DNA of 44,535 nucleotides from an uncultured Candidatus Saccharibacteria bacterium (GTDB lineage Bacteria; Patescibacteriota; Minisyncoccia; Phycocordibacterales; CSBR16-119). The notes beneath the pieces are model-generated. The model ran no database searches, was not told the DNA's origin, and was given only the letters and a program-made list of their open reading frames with translations. A program made the translations under genes and the position numbers. Below, one piece after another: positions 12,372-39,725 of the stretch. Position 1 is the first letter of the stretch; each line of letters opens with the position of its first letter. The stretch covers positions 1 through 44,535 of the forward strand of contig CAYHDV010000005.1 of NCBI GenBank assembly GCA_964355515.1, written 5' to 3'.

Positions 12372-12626
12372 TCAAAAATTCTTTTCTTTCTCAAGTATCC
12401 TTCTTTTTGCTTCTGGCCCACCGCGGTTGTATTCTCCGACATTTCCATCACTTTTTACAACTCGATGACAGGGGATAGAGGTGTTGTAATTATTTTTCAT
12501 AAGTGTTCCAACAGCACGAAAAGCCCCCGGACTTCCGGCTTTTGTTGCTACTTCTTTGTAGGAGAGAGTTTGCCCCTTGGGAATATTTTTTACTATTTGA
12601 ATAACTTTTTCTGCAAATTCACTCAT
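12372..12626 (-). CDS. O6-alkylguanine DNA alkyltransferase (MGMT C-terminal domain only)
   Basis: IPKGQTLSY, RAVG and the active-site PCHRV motif. Start moved to MSEFAEK. Confidence 0.9.
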   Translation of the reverse strand: MSEFAEKVIQIVKNIPKGQTLSYKEVATKAGSPGAFRAVGTLMKNNYNTSIPCHRVVKSDGNVGEYNRGGPEAKRRILEKEKNF

Positions 12627-12671
12627 GGTGTATATGGTAACATGGTTGTTAGAGTACACAGCAAAGAATAC

Positions 12672-12703
12672 AAAAAGCGCCTTGGGAAATCCAAGGCGCT
12701 TTT
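12672..12703 (-). terminator. Rho-independent terminator
   Basis: AAAAAGCGCCTTGG-GAAAT-CCAAGGCGCTTTT. Confidence 0.75.
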
Positions 12704-12825
12704 AAATGCAAATTCCTACTTAGCCGCAAGTTCAATTTTTTGAGATTTTTCAAACAGGTCGCTTAAAGTGGCAAGACCCACGAAGAAATAGCTAAATTAA
12801 TATGATCTAGTTAGGGGAACAAAGC

Positions 12826-13215
12826 TTATTCGGCTAGAAATTTTTCTAAAGTATCCTTTGTTGGAGAAATATCATATATTTCCTCAGGAGTGATAATTAT
12901 AAGACCCTTAACGACCCTTTCTGGTAGTATAGATTTTATCCAGACCACAGCTTCATCAAAGTCTTTTCCGGAAGTGATGTAAGAAGCCACTCCCTTTATT
13001 TGATATCCCATCATTTTTCTCCAACATACAAATGCCACACTTGGGTTATTTAATATATTAGATAGGGTTTTATCCATAAAATAGTTTATAAGCCAGATTT
13101 TGCCATCCACTATTTTAATAGAAGAAACTGGTACGACATTTAAATTATTTTTTGAACATGTTGCGATAGCTTTGGATTCAGAAGAAAGTATAAAATTTTC
13201 AATATTTTTTTCCAT
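12826..13215 (-). CDS. Pyridoxamine 5'-phosphate oxidase-like FMN-binding split-barrel protein
   Basis: IATCS..NVVPV, KTLSNILNNPSV, GYQIKG and EEIYDISP patterns. Confidence 0.85.
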   Translation of the reverse strand: MEKNIENFILSSESKAIATCSKNNLNVVPVSSIKIVDGKIWLINYFMDKTLSNILNNPSVAFVCWRKMMGYQIKGVASYITSGKDFDEAVVWIKSILPERVVKGLIIITPEEIYDISPTKDTLEKFLAE

Positions 13216-13240
13216 AGTTTTTACTTGTTGATTATGTTAT

Positions 13241-13282
13241 ATTGATAATGGTCTATATATATTAACATAGATACTCATCTAT
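13241..13282. promoter_or_regulatory. Candidate ArsR operator pair in the divergent intergenic region
   Basis: Perfect ATAGAT-N4-ATCTAT (13267-13282) abutting the ArsR ATG, plus a degenerate copy ATTGAT-N4-GTCTAT (13241-13256). Confidence 0.55.
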
Positions 13283-13681
13283 ATGAAAACAAAAAAAGAC
13301 ACAAAAAAACAGCAGACTGTAAAAGAAAACAAAAGTCAAAAAAAGACATATTCTATACCGAGTTGGGTCCCAGCCTCTTCTATTTCTGAAGAGGAATTAT
13401 GTCCAGATTGTTTCAAAGTTGTTGGTGAAAGAAGTCGTTATAATTTGGTTTGTCTGCTTGGTAAATCAAAAAATGGCCAAACAGTTACAGAATTGACGGA
13501 TAAAATGTCTCTAAAACAGCCTACCATTACTCACCACCTAAAGATGCTTCAATCAGTAAATGCAGTACATGCAAAAGTATCTGGTCGGGAAAAATATTTC
13601 ACCTTGAACCGTAGCGCACACTGCTTTGAGGATTGTAAAATACCTTATAAAAAGGGGCCTAGTGTAGTACATTTGCAATAA
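13283..13681 (+). CDS. ArsR/SmtB family transcriptional regulator, Cys-rich
   Basis: FKVVGERSR...TVTEL...LKQPTITHHLKML...GREKYF HTH motif. Five Cys (CPDC, LVC, CFEDC). Confidence 0.9.
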   Translation: MKTKKDTKKQQTVKENKSQKKTYSIPSWVPASSISEEELCPDCFKVVGERSRYNLVCLLGKSKNGQTVTELTDKMSLKQPTITHHLKMLQSVNAVHAKVSGREKYFTLNRSAHCFEDCKIPYKKGPSVVHLQ

Positions 13682-13682
13682 T

Positions 13683-15779
13683 ATGGACACAGCATCATTA
13701 CACGGCATACTTCTCATCATCCATTTATTTGGGGTAGTTTTGGGTGCTGGAGGCGCATTTATGAGTGACGGCATCTTTTTTACATCACTTAAGGATAAAA
13801 TGCTATCAAAAGACGAGTTCCGCATATTGGGGACCGCTTCTAATTTTATATGGGGAGGGTTATTTCTCCTTGTCATTTCAGGAATCGGACTTTTTGCTCA
13901 GGATGTCGAGGCACTATCTTCCTCTGAAAAGTTCATCTCTAAAATGACAGTTGTTGTGATCATTATTTTAAATGGTATTGTTTTTCATTTGGTCCATCTC
14001 CCGTTCCTAAAAAGACACCTGGATAAAAAATTAGCGTCAAAAGCAGAGCCTTCGTCTGCAAAATTGATACCATTCATTCTTGCAAGCGGAGTCATTTCTG
14101 TTGTTTCTTGGGTATCTGCTGTAATCTTGGGATCATTGCGATCATTTTCCTATTCATACGCTACAGTTTTGTCTGTCTATGCGCTGATTATTGGATTTGG
14201 AATATTCACTACATTACTATTATTCTCCGCTTACATAGATCGGAGGAATAAAAAAATTCTTGGGATGATTGGTGTCGGGATACTTGCCTTGGGAATAACC
14301 ATTGGGCTGATTTCTTTCTATTCACAAAAATCAATTGTTGACAGCAAAAATCCTGTCACAGGGATTAATGCAGAAATATTTGCAATGGAGAATGTTGCAA
14401 AGCACAATAATAGTGAGGATTGTTGGCTTATTATAGATAATAAAGTGTTTGATGCGACACCTGCGTCAAAAGTGCACCCGGCACTGTTTAATTGTGGTAC
14501 TGATGCGAGTGTAAATTATCACAAAAATCATGGGAAAGGTATTAGTGATAAAATGATGGTGTTTTATATAGGAGATCTTGGTGGAAACATTTCATCAAAA
14601 ACCGAAAAAGAAGAAGAAACGAAATCATACACAGAACTTAAACCTAAAAAAGAATTATATGTACCGAGTATGTCTTGGAGCCCTGATGAATTGATGGTGG
14701 TGGTAGAAAAAGACGCAGAAAAACTTCTTTTTATAGATGGAAATACTCATGCTGAAATCGGTCGCATACACGATATAGGATTCCAGCCTCATACATCGGT
14801 ATTTTCTTCTGACAAAAAATATATGTACATTATATCTAGAGATGGATGGCTTAGTAAGATCGATATCACGACGCTTGATCCAATTGTATCTATTCGTGTA
14901 GGTGAAAACTCTCGTGGAACCGCACTTACTGATAATGATAAGTTTTTAGCTGTTGGTAATTATGAACCACATACTCTGGTGATTATAGATACCGAAACAA
15001 TGCGTATTATCGAGACCATTGAAACCTCAGGTGAAATAAAAAATGAAATTATCGGATCTCGTGTTGGTGTTGTCGTGGAATCAGGACAGGATTTTATCAT
15101 CGCACTCAAAGATGCCAGTAGTGTATGGGTCATAGAGCAAGACAGAAACAAAAAATGGATTGTGAAAAATAAATATTCGAACATTGGTAACAACAAAGCA
15201 CCGCTTCACGATGGGTTCCTCACTCCTGATGGAAAATTTTTTGTTGTCGCAGTGCAAGGGGCAAATTCCGTATGGGTATTGGATACAAAAACATGGAAAG
15301 TCGTTGGAGAAGTTCCCACAGGGAAATTGCCACACACTGGACCTGGTGCTGTATGGAAAAATACAATATACATACCGGCTCTCGAGGAGGGACTTATTAC
15401 CGCAATAGATATGAACACATGGAAACCGATCGCAAGTATTAAAACTGGCGGACCAGGACTATTTGTTCGCAGTTATTCAAAAAACCCAGAATACCCCTAT
15501 GTATGGGCAGATACTGCCTTTGGTGATCATAAAGATGAAATCTATGTCATCGATGCCCGTGTAAATAAAATAGTGGAGACATTGATCCCTGTAAAAGGAA
15601 AAAATTCATGGCATCCGGAATTCACCTATGACGGAAAATTTGTGTATGTTGTTTCTCAGGAGGGTGGAGAAGTTACAGTGCATGACGCATATACATTTGA
15701 AGTAGTAAAAAGAATCAAGGCAAATACGCCTTCTGCTGTATCAAATGTTGGTTTACGAATAGAGGAACCTGGGCTTTAG
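13683..15779 (+). CDS. Fusion of multi-TM domain + cytochrome b5-like heme domain + NirS-type cytochrome d1 beta-propeller
   Basis: About six hydrophobic helices. b5 motif VAKHNNSEDCWLIIDNKVFD...HP...GTDAS...H. d1-domain motifs QPHTSVFS..RDG, LHDG, PHTGPGA, GGPGLFVRS and HPEF. No CxxCH. Confidence 0.85.
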   Translation: MDTASLHGILLIIHLFGVVLGAGGAFMSDGIFFTSLKDKMLSKDEFRILGTASNFIWGGLFLLVISGIGLFAQDVEALSSSEKFISKMTVVVIIILNGIVFHLVHLPFLKRHLDKKLASKAEPSSAKLIPFILASGVISVVSWVSAVILGSLRSFSYSYATVLSVYALIIGFGIFTTLLLFSAYIDRRNKKILGMIGVGILALGITIGLISFYSQKSIVDSKNPVTGINAEIFAMENVAKHNNSEDCWLIIDNKVFDATPASKVHPALFNCGTDASVNYHKNHGKGISDKMMVFYIGDLGGNISSKTEKEEETKSYTELKPKKELYVPSMSWSPDELMVVVEKDAEKLLFIDGNTHAEIGRIHDIGFQPHTSVFSSDKKYMYIISRDGWLSKIDITTLDPIVSIRVGENSRGTALTDNDKFLAVGNYEPHTLVIIDTETMRIIETIETSGEIKNEIIGSRVGVVVESGQDFIIALKDASSVWVIEQDRNKKWIVKNKYSNIGNNKAPLHDGFLTPDGKFFVVAVQGANSVWVLDTKTWKVVGEVPTGKLPHTGPGAVWKNTIYIPALEEGLITAIDMNTWKPIASIKTGGPGLFVRSYSKNPEYPYVWADTAFGDHKDEIYVIDARVNKIVETLIPVKGKNSWHPEFTYDGKFVYVVSQEGGEVTVHDAYTFEVVKRIKANTPSAVSNVGLRIEEPGL

Positions 15780-15804
15780 GCAGGATTCTGTGTATAATAA
15801 TGTT

Positions 15805-16455
15805 ATGATATTTTCGGTTCAATCTCGTGATGAAAAATCTTTGGAAAAATTTTATCATAGATCTGTAAAAGAACTCGATGATTTTTTCGGCTTGAATTTG
15901 AAGGAGGATAAACCAAGAATTTTCCTTGTTAAAAATCGAGAATCTATCAATAAACTAATGAGACAAAAAACGCCTGCTTGGGTTGTTGGTTGGGTTAACA
16001 ATACAGACATTTTTATTTTAGACAAGAATACCTATGAAAAAGAGAGTTCTCATACATATTCTGATGTCGAATATTCTCACCTAATGAAACATGAGTTGGT
16101 TCATGTATTTACCAAGGTGTATTCAGGAATTTTTAACAAATCCATCGAGCCTGATTGGCTCTGGGAAGGTTTGGCAACATATTTGTCTGGTCAAAATAAA
16201 ATCGAAAAAAACCAAGGCCAGTTGAAGGAATTTTTACAACACTACTCTCGGGTTAACAAAAACCTAAGCATTTTTTACAAAGAATCTGGTCTCGCGGTTG
16301 AATTTCTAGTTAAAAATTTTGGAAAACAAAAACTATTGAAATTAATAAAATCTTTCAAGGATATAAACTCCGAAATGGAATTTGTCATATGGTTTGAAAA
16401 AATTTATGGTTTTAAATTGAACTATAAAAATTTTCAAAAACCTTTTAAAAAATAA
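15805..16455 (+). CDS. Gluzincin-like (peptidase MA-like) metalloprotein
   Basis: HELVH plus downstream PDWLWEGLATYLS. TATAAT at 15793-15798 precedes ATG 15805. Confidence 0.75.
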   Translation: MIFSVQSRDEKSLEKFYHRSVKELDDFFGLNLKEDKPRIFLVKNRESINKLMRQKTPAWVVGWVNNTDIFILDKNTYEKESSHTYSDVEYSHLMKHELVHVFTKVYSGIFNKSIEPDWLWEGLATYLSGQNKIEKNQGQLKEFLQHYSRVNKNLSIFYKESGLAVEFLVKNFGKQKLLKLIKSFKDINSEMEFVIWFEKIYGFKLNYKNFQKPFKK

Positions 16456-16467
16456 TCACCAATCTTT

Positions 16468-17721
16468 ATGTTTAAATATCTTATTTTTGAAGCAATATCT
16501 GGAATAGTCGGTTTTGTAGCTTTTGTCATACTTGTGCGATATGTATGGAAACAGGGACATTTCCATTCAATTTTCAAGCAAAAATGGCTTTACCTGCCGG
16601 TCACTCTTGTCATTGTTGCTTTTTTTACAGGACTGGTAGCAAACAAAACATACCCACCAGACTTTGCAATGCCAGCATTTGTACATTCACATGCTCCAGG
16701 GGGGCTACCACCATCTATACCATTTTCTAATATTATAAATTTCTTTAGGTATGAACATCGTTTCGATAAAGTCGCAGATATTGGTGCAGATCCGACAGTT
16801 GTTCCAGAAAAACCACAAGCACCTGAAGCAGACGGTATTGTGCGTATTAGTTTGACTGCACAAGAAGTCCTCGGAGAGGTATCTCCTGGAATTTATTTTA
16901 ATTACTGGACATACAATAAACAAGTCCCTGGCCCGATGCTTCGTATTCGCGAGGGTGATACAGTGGAATTAACACTTACAAATGATCCATCAAGCCTCCA
17001 TGATCACAATATAGACTTACATGCAGTTACAGGCCCAGGAGGCGGAGCGTCAGTTACTCATGTAGCACCTGGAGAAACAAAAACATTCAGATGGAAAGCA
17101 TTAAACCCAGGGCTTTATATTTATCACTGCGCAATGCCAAATGTTTCTACACATAATTCTCACGGACAATACGGAATGATTTTAGTTGATCCTAAAGAAG
17201 GATTTGCAGAAGTTGATAAAGAATTTTATGTTATGCAAGGCGAACTATACACCATAGGACAACTTGGTAAAAAAGGATTAGTACCATTTGATCCTGACGC
17301 ACTGCTTGATGGTCGTCCCAATTATGTAACATTTAATGGTCTTATAGAAACGACTCCACGAATGCAAGCAAAAGTTGGTGATAAAATTCGTATGTATGTC
17401 GGCAATGGTGGAGTAAATCTGATCTCTTCTTTTCATGTAATTGGTGAGATTTTTGATACCGTGTATCCAAATGCAAGTATTGGTGGATCGCTTGAACATA
17501 ACACTCAGACGATAGCGGTTCTCCCTGGTGGAGCAAGTATCGTAGAATTTACTGTTGATGTCCCTGGTAAATACTTGATTGTAGATCACGCTCTAGCACG
17601 AATGAACAAGGGTGCATGGGCTGTTCTTGAAGTGACAGGAGATGAAAATGGAGAGGTCTTTAAAAAGATTGAAAGTAGTGAGGCCATGTCAGGATATATG
17701 GATATGCATCAATCTAAATAA
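16468..17721 (+). CDS. nirK: Copper-containing nitrite reductase, AniA-like, with two N-terminal TM helices
   Basis: VPGPMLR, HNIDLHAVTGPGGG, YHC-x7-H, EFYVMQGE, SSFHVIGEIFD and VDHAL motifs. Axial position is Gln. Confidence 0.93.
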   Translation: MFKYLIFEAISGIVGFVAFVILVRYVWKQGHFHSIFKQKWLYLPVTLVIVAFFTGLVANKTYPPDFAMPAFVHSHAPGGLPPSIPFSNIINFFRYEHRFDKVADIGADPTVVPEKPQAPEADGIVRISLTAQEVLGEVSPGIYFNYWTYNKQVPGPMLRIREGDTVELTLTNDPSSLHDHNIDLHAVTGPGGGASVTHVAPGETKTFRWKALNPGLYIYHCAMPNVSTHNSHGQYGMILVDPKEGFAEVDKEFYVMQGELYTIGQLGKKGLVPFDPDALLDGRPNYVTFNGLIETTPRMQAKVGDKIRMYVGNGGVNLISSFHVIGEIFDTVYPNASIGGSLEHNTQTIAVLPGGASIVEFTVDVPGKYLIVDHALARMNKGAWAVLEVTGDENGEVFKKIESSEAMSGYMDMHQSK

Positions 17722-17781
17722 CTCTGTTTTTCTACTGCTTCCGCCTTAATAGGTCGCTGTAAGCAAAGAAGTTTGCTCTGT

Positions 17782-18159
17782 GGTCACGAGTTACTAAGCA
17801 TAATCTTTCGAAAACTCAGATTCTGATAAGTACTCTCGACCCCGCCTCGCTCACTAAAAGTATCGCTGTGGCTGTCACACAGGTACAAATCTGAAGCAGT
17901 TCAGATTTTAACAACAAAACTACCACTTCCAACGGAAGTGGTAGTTTTGTTGTTACCTGTGTGACCCTACGGAGAATCGGTCACTCTCGTGGATATGTTT
18001 TTCAAACATATCTCACTCCCTCGACCCCCACTCGCCGTCTCAGCTCTGCGAGCTGGCTTCGCGACGCCTCGGTTCGATTCCCCTTAGTATCTTCACATCA
18101 AAAACACCCACTCTTTCAGAGTGGATGTTTAAGATGTGATGTGACCCTACGGAGAATCG
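17782..18159. repeat. tRNA-3'-linked structured repeat modules
   Basis: 20-bp direct repeat TGTGACCCTACGGAGAATCG at 17960 and 18140 (180 bp apart). Two GGTCAC-hairpin-CTCGACCCC-NN-CTCGC modules. Perfect 22-bp stem at 17909-17955. Confidence 0.75.
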
Positions 18160-18213
18160 AACTCCGATTTTAAGAATGAGAATCTTATGTCCTAGCCGTT
18201 AGACGATAGGGCC
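18142..18213 (-). tRNA. tRNA-Glu (anticodon CTC), CCA not encoded
   Basis: Reverse complement folds as a cloverleaf: acceptor GGCCCTA/TAGGGTC, anticodon arm TAAGA-TTCTCAT-TCTTA, T arm CGGAG-TTCGATT-CTCCG. Confidence 0.95.
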
Positions 18214-18339
18214 TTGAATATTTAATTATGTTTTTACACTTTCGCAACCGTTTGTTTCCTGAAAGGATTTTCAGTAGGTCTAACGGTACCCATACTTAAT
18301 TTAACGATAGGGCCAAATTGTTTATTGTAAACGATAGTA

Positions 18340-18368
18340 AGAATACTCCATTTAGAGTGATTTTTCAA
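18340..18368 (-). promoter_or_regulatory. Candidate sigma70 promoter for tRNA-Glu
   Basis: Minus strand TTGAAA (18368-18363), 17-nt spacer, TATTCT (18345-18340). Confidence 0.5.
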
Positions 18369-18396
18369 GTTTTTTATTATGATATGATGTTTTCTA

Positions 18397-19053
18397 GTGG
18401 AGACAGAAATTCAAGAAAAAGTCAGAGCAATCATTGGGGTGATTACAATTGTTACCTTAGCTTTTTTGTCATACAACGCTACACAATATTTGACAGATGA
18501 TTACAATGTAAATCCTGTACCATATGACCGTTTTGATGTGGTTATTCTTGGGGACTCAATCACTGAAGGATTGGGAGCGTCGGAGGGTAGAGACTATGTC
18601 TCACTTCTCCGAGCTCATACAGGAGTGAAGATCAGAAATAGTGGGATCAGAGAGTATAAGACAGGGGATGCTCTTATTCGTTTGGATACAGATGTACTTG
18701 CTTATGATCCAGACATTGTGGTGATCTTGCTTGGGGGAAATGATTTTATAAAGCGTACGCCAAAAGAAGAGACGTTTTCTAACCTTTCTCAAATTATAGG
18801 AAAGCTACAAGAAGAAGATGTTGCAGTTTTGCTTGTCGGCGTGCCTGGTGGACTGTTTTTTGATTCTTACAAAAATGAATTTGACGCACTAGCTTCAGAA
18901 TTTGGGGTTGCGTATATTCCAAATGTTCTAGAGGGTGTTATAGGTACTTTCCGATACATGAAAGATCCTCTTCATCCAAATGATGTGGGCCACCAGATAT
19001 TATTTGAAAGAATTGCTCCAGAATTAGATAAATTACTCCAGATGCATTATTAA
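18397..19053 (+). CDS. SGNH/GDSL arylesterase-like hydrolase with N-terminal anchor
   Basis: GDSITEG, LGGND and DPLHPN catalytic blocks. Confidence 0.9.
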   Translation: METEIQEKVRAIIGVITIVTLAFLSYNATQYLTDDYNVNPVPYDRFDVVILGDSITEGLGASEGRDYVSLLRAHTGVKIRNSGIREYKTGDALIRLDTDVLAYDPDIVVILLGGNDFIKRTPKEETFSNLSQIIGKLQEEDVAVLLVGVPGGLFFDSYKNEFDALASEFGVAYIPNVLEGVIGTFRYMKDPLHPNDVGHQILFERIAPELDKLLQMHY

Positions 19054-24929: not shown

Positions 24930-25244
24930 ATGGGAGAACAATTTGAATTAAAATTTGAAAGGGAGCTCACCCCTCCTGAAAAAATAAGGAGAGACCTTCT
25001 GGTCTCTGCGATAGAGAGAGCGACTCTACCTTCTGGAGAAATTGATATGTTTCTTCTAGACAAAGATTTTGCTTTGCTTAGAGAGACATACACCTCACCG
25101 AAAATCCCAGAACAAATGGTGGAATTTTTTAATGAGTATGCAGAAGAACATAAATTAAACCAGAGAGTGCATCTACATAAATTTTTGGATAGATTTGGTC
25201 ATGCACGATACAACATCGAAAAAGATTTGAAAGAAGCCGCATAG
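24930..25244 (+). CDS. Hypothetical protein
   Basis: 104-aa charged ORF starting 3 nt after the MYG1 stop. Confidence 0.65.
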   Translation: MGEQFELKFERELTPPEKIRRDLLVSAIERATLPSGEIDMFLLDKDFALLRETYTSPKIPEQMVEFFNEYAEEHKLNQRVHLHKFLDRFGHARYNIEKDLKEAA

Positions 25245-25340
25245 GAAGAGTTGGATTTGTTTATCACTTGATTGATATATTTTTATATCCAAAACACATC
25301 TTGATTAAAAGTATGTCAAGTGTTATACTAATTAACATAT

Positions 25341-26312
25341 ATGGCATTTGTAGATGAAATAAAAATTTATGCAAAAGCAGGAGACGGCGGAAACGGCGTT
25401 GTTCGTTGGCGTCATGATAAATTTGAACCAAAGGGAGGCCCAGCTGGTGGAAATGGCGGAAATGGTGGTGATGTCTATATTCGAGCGACAAGGGATTTGG
25501 GTATACTTTCTAAATACAGCCACAATCCAAAATTTCTTGCAGAAAAAGGAGAGAATGGTGCAGGGAGTGGACTCTTTGGTAAAAATGGAGAAAAACTATA
25601 CATCGATATTCCAGTAGGGTCTGTTGTGACCAATCTTGAAACTGGAGAAAAATTTGAACTGGATGAATCAGATAAAGAAATAAAAATTCTTGGTGGAGGA
25701 AGAGGAGGATTTGGTAACGAACATTTCAAAGCTTCCACAAATACTACTCCTGTAGAATGGACACCAGGGAAACCAGGAGAAGAAGCAGATTATCTGATAG
25801 AGGTAGAGCTTTTTGCTGATGCAGGATTTGTGGGGCTACCATCCGCAGGAAAGTCCAGCCTTCTAAACGAGCTGACAAACGCAAAATCAAAAGTTGCAGA
25901 ATACCACTTCACAACACTTGATCCTCATTTGGGTAAATATCATGAATTTATTCTTGCTGATATTCCAGGACTTATCGAAGGTGCTTCTTCTGGAAAGGGT
26001 CTTGGTCATAAATTTCTTAGACATATAAAAAGAACAAAGCTTCTTGTCCATATCGTATCGTTTGAATACGGAGATGAAATGATTGATAAATATACAGGGA
26101 TTAGAAAAGAGCTCGAAACTTATGATCCGGAACTTAGTGAAAAGGAAGAAATAATTCTACTTTCAAAAACAGACCTTGTGGATGGTGCAGAAGTAAAAAA
26201 GAGAAAAAAAGAATTTGAAAAAACAGGGAAAAAAGTATTCACCATAAGTCTATATGACAATGAGGAAGTAAAAGATTTTTCAGATGAGTTGGTTAAAATA
26301 CTAAGAAATTAA
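25341..26312 (+). CDS. obgE: GTPase ObgE/CgtA (no C-terminal extension)
   Basis: FVDE...GDGGNG Obg fold; GLPSAGKS, YHFTT, ADIPG and SKTD motifs. Confidence 0.96.
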   Translation: MAFVDEIKIYAKAGDGGNGVVRWRHDKFEPKGGPAGGNGGNGGDVYIRATRDLGILSKYSHNPKFLAEKGENGAGSGLFGKNGEKLYIDIPVGSVVTNLETGEKFELDESDKEIKILGGGRGGFGNEHFKASTNTTPVEWTPGKPGEEADYLIEVELFADAGFVGLPSAGKSSLLNELTNAKSKVAEYHFTTLDPHLGKYHEFILADIPGLIEGASSGKGLGHKFLRHIKRTKLLVHIVSFEYGDEMIDKYTGIRKELETYDPELSEKEEIILLSKTDLVDGAEVKKRKKEFEKTGKKVFTISLYDNEEVKDFSDELVKILRN

Positions 26313-38054: not shown

Positions 38055-39725
38055 ATGGAAGATCTGAAGACTCAAATTGAAAAGTTTTTTTCAGGTGACG
38101 TTGTGCTTGATAGGGCAGATTTAAAAAAGGCTAGCAGGGACTGGAGTCTTTTTGAAGTGACACCAAAAATGATCGTATATCCTAGAAATTCTCGAGATAT
38201 ACAAGAGCTGGTATCTTTTGTCTCAAAGAAAAAGAAAACTCAAAAATGGGGTGACCTCTCTCTGACTGTTCGTGCTGCAGGTACAGACATGTCTGGTGGC
38301 CCACTAAATGATTCTATTATTATAGACGTGACTCGATATATGAAGGGGATTATTTCTATCGACGAAAAACAAGTGGTTATCCTCCCTGGTACTTATTATA
38401 GAGATTTAGAAAAGAAAACAGATGAGCTGGGTGTTATGATGCCGTGTTTTCCCGCATCAAAAAGTATTTGTGCTGTCGGAGGAATGGTTGCGAACAATGG
38501 TGCAGGGGAGTTGTCTCTTCGATATGGCCAAAACAAAGATTGGGTAAAATCTCTAAAGGTTGTACTTGCAGATGGTAAAGAATACGAATTCAAACCTGTC
38601 ACAAGAGATGTGGTCCAGGCAAAGAGCTTACAGAAAGACTTGGAAGGCGAGGTGTATAGAAAAGTCTGGCATCTTGTCCAAAGAGCAAAGGATGACATCC
38701 AGTTGGCAAAACCAAAAACAAGCAAAAATAGTTCAGGCTATCTTATTTGGGATACCTGGAATGAATCTCTAGAACTTTTTGACCTTACAAAGCTGGTTGT
38801 CGGCGCTCAGGGTACAACTGCGATCATCACAGAAATAACATATGCCCTCACTCCGAAATCAAAGACAAAAATAATGATTGTCTCATTTTTGCGAGATTTC
38901 AAATCAATTCCAGAATTAGTGGAAACTCTTCTTAAGACAAACCCAGATTCTCTTGAGGTGTATGATGATAATACATTCAAGTTCGCCGCAAAATTTTTTA
39001 AAGACCTTGTAAAAGACAAGGGGTTCTGGGGAGTTATTCATTTTGGATTACGGTTTATTCCTGAATTTTTTATGTCTTTGTTTGGAGGTATCCCTAAAAT
39101 GGTTGTCTTGTCTGAGTACTCAGGAGAGACTACCAAAGAGGTTCAAGAGAAAGCAAAAGAAGTAAAAAAACTTTTGAGAAAAATTAAAAACATTCGTTCT
39201 AGAATCATTTCTTCTCCCAAAGAAGCAGAGAAGTATTGGCAGATCAGACATGATAGTTTCAAGCTTCTTACAGAACACTCAAAAGATGAAAGTCACGGTA
39301 GTAGAACCGCGCCTTTTATTGATGATATAGCAATAAATCCAGAATATCTGCCAGAATATCTGCCCAGACTTATTGGAATATTGGAACAATACAATTTGCT
39401 CTACACGATAGCAGGACACCTCGGAAATGGGAATCTTCATATCATACCGATTATGGACTTTAATGATCCTCGGACAAAAGAAGTTATTTTAGAAATAACA
39501 CCAAAAGTCTACGAATTGGCAAAGGAATACCAAGGCTCATTTACCGCAGAGCACAATGACGGGATTATCAGAACGCCATATCTTTCTATGATGTATGGTG
39601 AAAAGACAGTAGAAATTTTCAAAGAAATTAAGGACATTTTTGATCCTCTAAACATCTTTAATCCAGGGAAAAAGGTTGGAGGTACAATCAAATATCTAGA
39701 GGACCACATAATCTTAGAAAAATAG
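38055..39725 (+). CDS. FAD-binding oxidoreductase (GlcD/D-lactate dehydrogenase-like)
   Basis: RAAGTDMSG, VGGMVANN, GAQGT, GHLGNGNLH, AEHNDG and FDPLNIFNPGK motifs. Confidence 0.88.
   Translation: MEDLKTQIEKFFSGDVVLDRADLKKASRDWSLFEVTPKMIVYPRNSRDIQELVSFVSKKKKTQKWGDLSLTVRAAGTDMSGGPLNDSIIIDVTRYMKGIISIDEKQVVILPGTYYRDLEKKTDELGVMMPCFPASKSICAVGGMVANNGAGELSLRYGQNKDWVKSLKVVLADGKEYEFKPVTRDVVQAKSLQKDLEGEVYRKVWHLVQRAKDDIQLAKPKTSKNSSGYLIWDTWNESLELFDLTKLVVGAQGTTAIITEITYALTPKSKTKIMIVSFLRDFKSIPELVETLLKTNPDSLEVYDDNTFKFAAKFFKDLVKDKGFWGVIHFGLRFIPEFFMSLFGGIPKMVVLSEYSGETTKEVQEKAKEVKKLLRKIKNIRSRIISSPKEAEKYWQIRHDSFKLLTEHSKDESHGSRTAPFIDDIAINPEYLPEYLPRLIGILEQYNLLYTIAGHLGNGNLHIIPIMDFNDPRTKEVILEITPKVYELAKEYQGSFTAEHNDGIIRTPYLSMMYGEKTVEIFKEIKDIFDPLNIFNPGKKVGGTIKYLEDHIILEK

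Follow-up and report, generated by a model that had tools for sequence, protein, structure and literature searches.

A glutamine at the axial position of the type 1 copper site in a clade of Patescibacteria nitrite reductases

Of the two enzymes that channel nitrite into gaseous nitrogen oxides, one is the copper-containing nitrite reductase NirK, whose type 1 (T1) copper has, to our knowledge, long been regarded as having an invariant ligand set. The nirK gene considered here, which lies on a 44,535-nucleotide stretch of contig CAYHDV010000005.1 from an uncultured Candidatus Saccharibacteria bacterium (the window, taken at its full length), places glutamine where the axial methionine is expected. 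This raises three questions: whether the glutamine is a genuine, inherited feature of the enzyme, what it would do at the copper, and whether it discloses the source of the electrons. A first-pass annotation of the window had regarded the substitution as natural and as tuning the enzyme to a low-potential donor, for which the cytochrome b5 domain encoded two genes upstream was put forward as the obvious candidate.

Fold and copper sites of the window NirK

The gene and the positions that matter for its copper chemistry are as follows.

16468..17721, + strand: nirK, encoding a 417-aa copper-containing nitrite reductase with an AniA-like two-domain core (TIGR02376, PDB matches, AF2/Foldseek)
16468..16782, + strand: N-terminal extension, residues 1-105, a predicted two-helix membrane hairpin (2-29, 39-58) followed by a low-confidence linker (AF2 secondary structure and pLDDT)
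17005..17022, + strand: sensing loop H180 (T1 ligand)-N-I-D183 (AspCAT)-L-H185 (T2 ligand), from motif position and column conservation
17125..17175, + strand: T1/T2 loop H220-C221-x7-H229-x4-Q234-Y-G, with one T2 ligand (H220), two T1 ligands (C221, H229) and Q234 at the axial position
17128-17130, + strand: C221 codon TGC (motif position)
17152-17154, + strand: H229 codon (motif position)
17167-17169, + strand: Q234 codon CAA (motif position)
17434..17442, + strand: H323 (HisCAT), V324 and I325 (IleCAT), from motif position and conserved columns
17587..17589, + strand: H374, the T2 ligand that comes from the neighbouring subunit (motif position; column invariant in the alignment)

The protein belongs with the AniA class of NirK, as the first-pass annotation had it, and its PDB matches are 2zoo and AniA itself (1kbv, 5tb7) at E ~1e-94, in an alignment that preserves the C-x7-H-x4 spacing free of gaps. 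With 296.8 bits the protein clears the cut-off (296.3) of the NCBIfam model TIGR02376 (Cu_nitrite_red), though by just 0.5 bit. An AF2 model built from a 52-row alignment has a mean pLDDT of 85, with most of the core above 90, and Foldseek places the monomer core on solved NirK cores (6the at TMt 0.95 and rmsd 1.9 Å). The chain ends about 15 residues past this core, and the Pfam and NCBIfam searches find no C-terminal cupredoxin or other further domain there; nor is any Pfam or NCBIfam family matched by the N-terminal extension, whose hairpin would, by the positive-inside rule, hold the enzyme facing outward. The alignment consensus also picks out conserved His/Met stretches within this extension, both in the loop that joins the helices and in the disordered linker that follows them. 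The host genome comprises 657,822 bp in 30 contigs and is 97% complete; the nearest relatives by the nirK gene are Patescibacteria/CPR MAGs.

The T1-loop stretch YHCAMPNVSTHNSHGQYG is present in the translation of the open reading frame at 16468-17721 (+), and YIYHCAMPNVSTHNSHGQYGMILVDP aligns gap-free with the loop of AniA-type enzymes, so that Gln234 lies opposite the axial methionine of 'HIANGMYG' (AniA, 2zoo). The window protein therefore departs from the canonical His-Cys-His-Met T1 set at one member: H180, C221 and H229 are present and the axial position is glutamine, in agreement with the original reading of the CAA codon. That reading had also held the type 2 (T2) and catalytic residues to be intact, which is borne out by an alignment of 205 NirKs, where the columns of H180, D183, H185, H220, C221, H229, H323, I325 and H374 are conserved; this covers the T2 histidines (H185, H220, H374) as well as the catalytic D183, H323 and I325. 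For the three sensing-loop columns the counts are H 202, D 197 and H 201. Gln234 would thus be expected to coordinate the T1 copper as the corresponding residue does in TsNirK and stellacyanin, judging from the alignment and by analogy; TsNirK, the one solved exception to the canonical T1 set, is nevertheless an active NirK.

Conservation and single origin of the glutamine

To place the substitution among relatives we used two collections, in both of which the genomes are mutually related MAGs and the counts are consequently not independent. The closest-protein set holds the query and 119 other matches listed, at 72-100% identity, after 8000 candidates were scored, and the motif HGQ[YF]G occurs in all 120 of these closest protein clusters. 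The locus set derives from a scan of one genome per species, which gave 576 relative-encoding stretches; among the best 80 of the 576, which were analysed, the axial residue is Gln in 63 (56-93% identity) and Met in 17 (49-57%). The codons in the same best 80 loci are CAA in 41 and CAG in 22 for glutamine, and ATG in all 17 Met-type loci. As both glutamine codons are in use, the residue has evidently been held while its codon drifted.

These counts supply the comparison with NirK references that had been proposed as a check, and they bear out the original contention that the glutamine is neither a sequencing slip nor a product of decay: it recurs in 120 of 120 closest listed proteins and in 63 of the best 80 of 576 loci, under two codons. 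The supporting argument, that three base changes separate ATG from CAA, holds for the window codon itself but loses force across the clade, where 22 of 63 relatives use CAG, only two changes away from ATG.

The wider family offers a few other departures from methionine. When the 150 representatives at 50% identity were read by eye, ten had no readable HC loop, and the rest showed Gln in five, Leu in four, Ala in one and Met in the others. Among these natural NirK-like proteins, P0127, P0135, P0209, P0142 and P0145 carry an axial Leu, Ala or lone Gln, and one representative lacking the axial Met is labelled as a multicopper oxidase from a Methylocella MAG. One related genome (G002; loci L003/L152 and L173) has two kinds of NirK on separate contigs, a Gln-type enzyme at 91% identity and a Met-type enzyme at 54%.

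For the phylogeny, the 205 aligned rows comprised the window protein together with locus NirKs and representative matches of at least 300 aa each. Residues 105-400 were used as input, and six rows with fewer than 230 aligned residues were dropped, leaving 199 core sequences for FastTree (LG+gamma, midpoint root, SH-like supports). In the tree, 62 tips, all of them with Gln, form a single clade (support 1.0). Its sister group consists of the Met-type Patescibacteria sequences, 17 in number (support for the pair 0.98), and the outgroups around both are Met-type; a lone further Gln sequence, P0145, falls elsewhere. Apart from Q234, the residues that separate the Gln clade from its sister clade and outgroups are S227, N230, E294 and N380, and the first two of these, both polar, share the copper loop with Q234. 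The rows of the alignment with other axial residues number four Leu, two Ala and the one lone Gln; the closest relatives of the Patescibacteria clade include two of these Leu rows as well as the Gln row and the two Ala rows. The change from methionine to glutamine is real, has a single origin and is fixed in a large clade.

Gene neighbourhood and candidate electron donors

In the window, nirK closes a tightly spaced row of genes on one strand (+), and the features relevant to the question of the donor are these.

12826-13215, - strand: PNPOx-like flavin-binding split-barrel gene, 129 aa
13283..13681, + strand: ArsR-family regulator at the head of the gene row (Pfam HTH_5, HTH_20)
13683..15779, + strand: b5-d1 gene, whose product joins a six-helix membrane domain to a cytochrome b5 domain and, at residues 334-689, a d1-type beta-propeller (Pfam/PDB)
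14385-14579, + strand: cytochrome b5 domain of b5-d1, residues 235-299 (Pfam Cyt-b5, 1.9e-8)
15790..16455, + strand: Peptidase-MA-like 221-aa gene between b5-d1 and nirK (Pfam Peptidase_MA_2, 3.4e-6, below cut-off)
38055-39725, + strand: FAD-linked oxidase (D-lactate dehydrogenase-like)

The Peptidase-MA-like gene recurs in only one of the best 80 of 576 loci (L003), and neighbourhood clustering over 81 loci revealed no universal nirK neighbour, the commonest family reaching 15 of 81. ArsR-type genes stand beside nirK in 15 of the 81 loci (clusters 6 and 12, with nine and six), P-type ATPases are neighbours in 15, B12-dependent RNR in 12 (with cobalamin adenosyltransferase in ten), PNPOx-like genes in 11 and the FAD-linked oxidase in six. 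The 11 loci with a PNPOx-like gene within a few kb of nirK, the window included, are all Gln-type, set against none of the 17 Met-type loci, though the numbers are small. In six other loci (L047, L052-L055 and L067) a member of the FAD-linked oxidase family is encoded no more than about 5 kb from nirK, in most of them at under 1 kb, and is a possible source of reducing equivalents. A promoter and terminator scan of 12600-18400 gave no promoters beyond the shuffled expectation. Just downstream of nirK there is an exact 20-nt direct repeat (17960-17979 and 18140-18159), in which the 3' end of a tRNA-Glu(CTC) gene (18141-18213, -) is duplicated 180 bp away. Shuffled sequences predict no such match, and the repeat has the look of an att-type scar left by an integrating element, but no recombinase family was seen among the scanned ORFs of the window.

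The conventional donors are not apparent in the window's genome. PF00127 (cupredoxin) and PF13442 (cytochrome c) have no match in it, PF13473 matches only NirK itself, and PF00115 (COX1/NorB) gives nothing above cut-off. The b5 domain of b5-d1 is the sole recognisable small redox domain locally and the only b5 domain in the genome. Its partner propeller is matched by Pfam Cytochrom_D1 at 8.2e-69 and finds its best PDB match in NirN (6rtd, 2.2e-53), then in NirF (6tv2) and then in NirS, so that b5-d1 resembles NirN or NirS with b5 in place of cytochrome c. In cd1-type NirN and NirS proteins the fused cytochrome feeds its own propeller, and given the NirN-like character of the propeller, the b5 domain most simply serves the propeller to which it is attached. 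The genome, at 97% completeness, has no match to ALAD, and this leaves the haem supply of b5-d1 unexplained. The six-helix domain (13683-14357) has a paralogue fused to a VKOR (vitamin K epoxide reductase) domain on contig C8 of the same genome (~25010-26077, -); the module matches CopD weakly (E 9e-4, below cut-off) and occurs in many NirK-carrying genomes, both as a stand-alone form of ~190 aa and as a fused form of ~340 aa.

How far b5-d1 accompanies NirK was assessed in both directions. Starting from NirK (the best 80 of 576 loci), a full or near-full b5-d1 is encoded in four of 63 Gln-type and one of 17 Met-type genomes, and it adjoins nirK in two of 80 loci; the co-occurrence of Gln-axial NirK with the b5-d1 fusion, which the first-pass annotation had proposed to test, is thus limited to a few genomes. 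For the reverse test a b5-d1 scan gave 44 loci with 37 substantive matches, and the 36 genomes concerned were searched for NirK. A nirK gene lies within the 7 kb of fetched flanks in seven of the 37 loci (five Gln, two Met), and 22 of the 36 genomes encode NirK, 12 of them Gln-type and ten Met-type only, with one genome carrying both types. By comparison, an even sample of the phylum yields NirK in five of 301 genomes at E ≤ 1e-20 (three above cut-off), an enrichment with a Fisher p of ~1e-20, which the kinship of the genomes overstates. We conclude that b5-d1 genuinely accompanies NirK in Patescibacteria, whichever residue fills the axial position. The suggestion of the b5 domain as donor therefore survives in part: its linkage to NirK is real, while as a reason for the glutamine it is not supported, the NirK-bearing b5-d1 genomes being divided between 12 Gln-type and ten with Met-type only. 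A functional coupling between the two proteins, be it electron transfer or a shared nitrite and NO chemistry, is supported by the co-occurrence, and any electron path to NirK is one that we infer.

Two broader associations were also tried. A b5 domain of any kind (PF00173) is found in 23 of 63 Gln-type and two of 17 Met-type genomes from the best 80 of 576 loci, and in 75 of 301 genomes of the phylum sample; tracking of Gln-type NirK by b5 is unproven on these figures, with Fisher p = 0.076 against the Met-type genomes and p = 0.063 against the phylum, both overstated by kinship. Four small b5 proteins were inspected, and all have an N-terminal anchor followed by a linker, from which they probably face outward. 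Small cupredoxins (frames <330 aa; the count sets aside frames of at least 400 aa, some of which are likely to be NirK itself) occur in 21 of 63 Gln-type and seven of 17 Met-type genomes from the same 80 loci, which rules out the idea that cupredoxins are absent from the former and present in the latter. Because the Met-type sisters inhabit similar organisms with similar accessory genes, such counts provide no adaptive link between the glutamine and the type of donor.

Known glutamine sites and competing explanations

Gln-axial NirK is already known in nature. Full-text literature searches returned one case, TsNirK from Thermus scotoductus SA-01 (PDB 6HBE), in which the core T1 copper is held by His75, Cys115, His125 and Gln130; the glutamine, five residues past the second histidine ligand, binds copper through its side-chain oxygen, and its authors describe the site as never seen before in NirKs (PMC6400189). 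The source organism also carries a d1-type nitrite reductase gene, so that TsNirK and the window enzyme have in common both this setting and a His2-Cys-Gln core site with the glutamine at like spacing. However, TsNirK is a three-domain protein whose fused C-terminal cupredoxin feeds a buried Gln site, it has a SerCAT, and nine residues separate its Cys115 from His125 (PMC6400189), whereas the window NirK has no C-terminal domain, keeps AspCAT (D183, in the loop H-N-I-D-L-H), has the C-x7-H spacing and begins with a two-helix anchor. The window protein matches 6hbe at E 1.6e-33, compared with 1e-94 for AniA-type cores. The window lineage is separate from TsNirK, and the differences in domains and catalytic residue, together with the weak 6hbe match, make an independent origin of the glutamine in the window clade most likely.

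The nearest analogues in sequence and fold are instead AniA of Neisseria gonorrhoeae (1KBV, 5TB7) and the cores of the tethered NirKs (2ZOO, 6THE, RpNiR, HdNiR), at 45-48% identity over ~300 residues. These share the loop lengths, the T2 and catalytic residues and some form of membrane attachment or tethering with the window enzyme, but all have an axial methionine; moreover, AniA is lipid-anchored and the tethered NirKs carry fused donor domains, while the window NirK has a transmembrane hairpin. The Patescibacteria/CPR clade treated in two surveys has both gene family and phylum in common with the window NirK, and is described there as a distinct clade with its electron donor unresolved (PMC5581439, PMC12931201). 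Danczak 2017 reports conserved T1 and T2 ligand sites in CPR NirK, and the passages of that paper make no mention of glutamine (PMC5581439); nor do the words ligand, glutamine, methionine or T1Cu occur in the main text of the Adv Sci 2025 survey (PMC12931201). The likeness to stellacyanin is one of site chemistry only, namely the His2-Cys-Gln ligand set (in part after PMC6400189), and an engineered M150Q NirK exists as well, whose CD spectrum has been described.

Our preferred explanation, to which as a whole we would give a probability of about 0.65, is a membrane-tethered NirK with a Gln-axial T1 site of single origin and lowered potential, whose donor is not fixed by the ligand. On this view the window NirK would be a working, outward-facing enzyme that converts nitrite to NO in a 0.66-Mb Patescibacteria genome, with its T1 copper held by His180, Cys221, His229 and axial Gln234 in a site of the stellacyanin and TsNirK type. 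The glutamine would have a single origin, at the root of a large clade of Patescibacteria NirKs and in company with S227, N230, E294 and N380, and selection would have maintained it thereafter. If other Gln-axial blue copper sites are a guide (stellacyanins being single-domain plant phytocyanins), it would lower the T1 potential, which may favour transfer from T1 to T2 and would suit donors below azurin and cytochrome c, neither of which appears to be encoded in this genome; that such a potential suits organisms lacking high-potential carriers is plausible. In this genome b5-d1 may exchange electrons or intermediates with NirK, an exchange that would be neither required by the glutamine nor specific to it.

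A narrower reading, that glutamine tunes the T1 site specifically for electrons from the b5 domain of b5-d1, draws on the placing of the two genes on the same strand in a tight row under an ArsR-type regulator, on the outward orientation predicted for both proteins, on the absence from this genome of any other b5 domain and of any match to a cupredoxin or cytochrome c, and on the enrichment of NirK in b5-d1 genomes (22/36 against 5/301), with nirK within 7 kb in seven of 37 b5-d1 loci. We regard it as improbable nonetheless, for b5-d1 is confined to four of 63 Gln-type and one of 17 Met-type genomes and adjoins nirK in two of the best 80 loci, and where it is accompanied by NirK the enzyme is of Met-type only nearly as often as it is Gln-type. 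A b5 domain of any kind is found in 23 of 63 Gln-type genomes, set against 75 of 301 in a phylum sample in which NirK is rare; a NirN/NirS-like protein would be expected to use its fused cytochrome for its own propeller; and the haem for b5 is unaccounted for, there being no match to ALAD, a haem synthesis enzyme. It is more improbable still, and in our view very unlikely, that Gln234 does not bind copper, with Met237, Met223 or His232 as the fourth ligand or a three-coordinate site. In favour of this, His232 is conserved in the Gln clade, but it is equally common in the Met-type sister enzymes, where methionine is the ligand. Position 237, the methionine of GQYGM, named beforehand as an axial ligand that would overturn the glutamine assignment, is leucine in 47 of the 63 Gln-type loci (from the best 80 of 576) and for that reason is not the ligand, and position 223 varies likewise (Met in 43 of the 63, Thr in 17, and Val, Leu and Gln in one each), so that all three substitutes are rejected. 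In TsNirK, moreover, a glutamine at like spacing binds the copper through its side-chain oxygen (PMC6400189).

The remaining alternative is that the glutamine is a historical, near-neutral founder change, locked in by co-adapted residues of the loop and devoid of meaning for the donor. In its favour, the glutamine arose just once, where its clade begins, and the Met-type sisters do live in the same kind of genomes with a similar content of cupredoxins and b5-d1; no conserved neighbour gene marks the Gln-type loci, where the commonest family reaches 15 of 81, and other axial residues (four Leu, two Ala and the lone Gln) have appeared in the family, several of them among the nearest relatives of the clade. 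What weighs against it is the lack of any reversion in 63 species loci or 120 listed protein clusters despite synonymous turnover, the polar co-changes S227 and N230 in the same loop, and the behaviour of stellacyanin and M150Q, whose Gln-axial sites are known to differ in spectrum and potential. On balance we consider it unlikely, while granting that it deserves a serious hearing. Beyond the membrane-tethered, low-potential enzyme that we prefer, one may tentatively go further and picture a distinct wiring of NirK that dispenses with cytochrome c, the bc1 complex and cupredoxin, in which the low-potential T1 site of an outward-facing, membrane-anchored enzyme would be fed by low-potential b-type haem or flavin carriers (anchored b5 proteins, b5-d1, or even carriers derived from a host) and nitrite would act as an external electron sink for a fermenter and not as part of a respiratory chain; this is speculative, and we think it rather improbable as stated.

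The finding matters for annotation, because published surveys call the copper ligands of these enzymes conserved. It also bears on how bacteria that have no respiratory chain feed electrons to NirK. A clade with a fixed glutamine, widespread in Patescibacteria from groundwater, wastewater and lakes, offers a natural experiment on the relation between axial ligand, potential and the choice of donor, and the association of b5-d1 with NirK, which is maintained regardless of the ligand, points to a two-enzyme nitrite and NO module in Patescibacteria.
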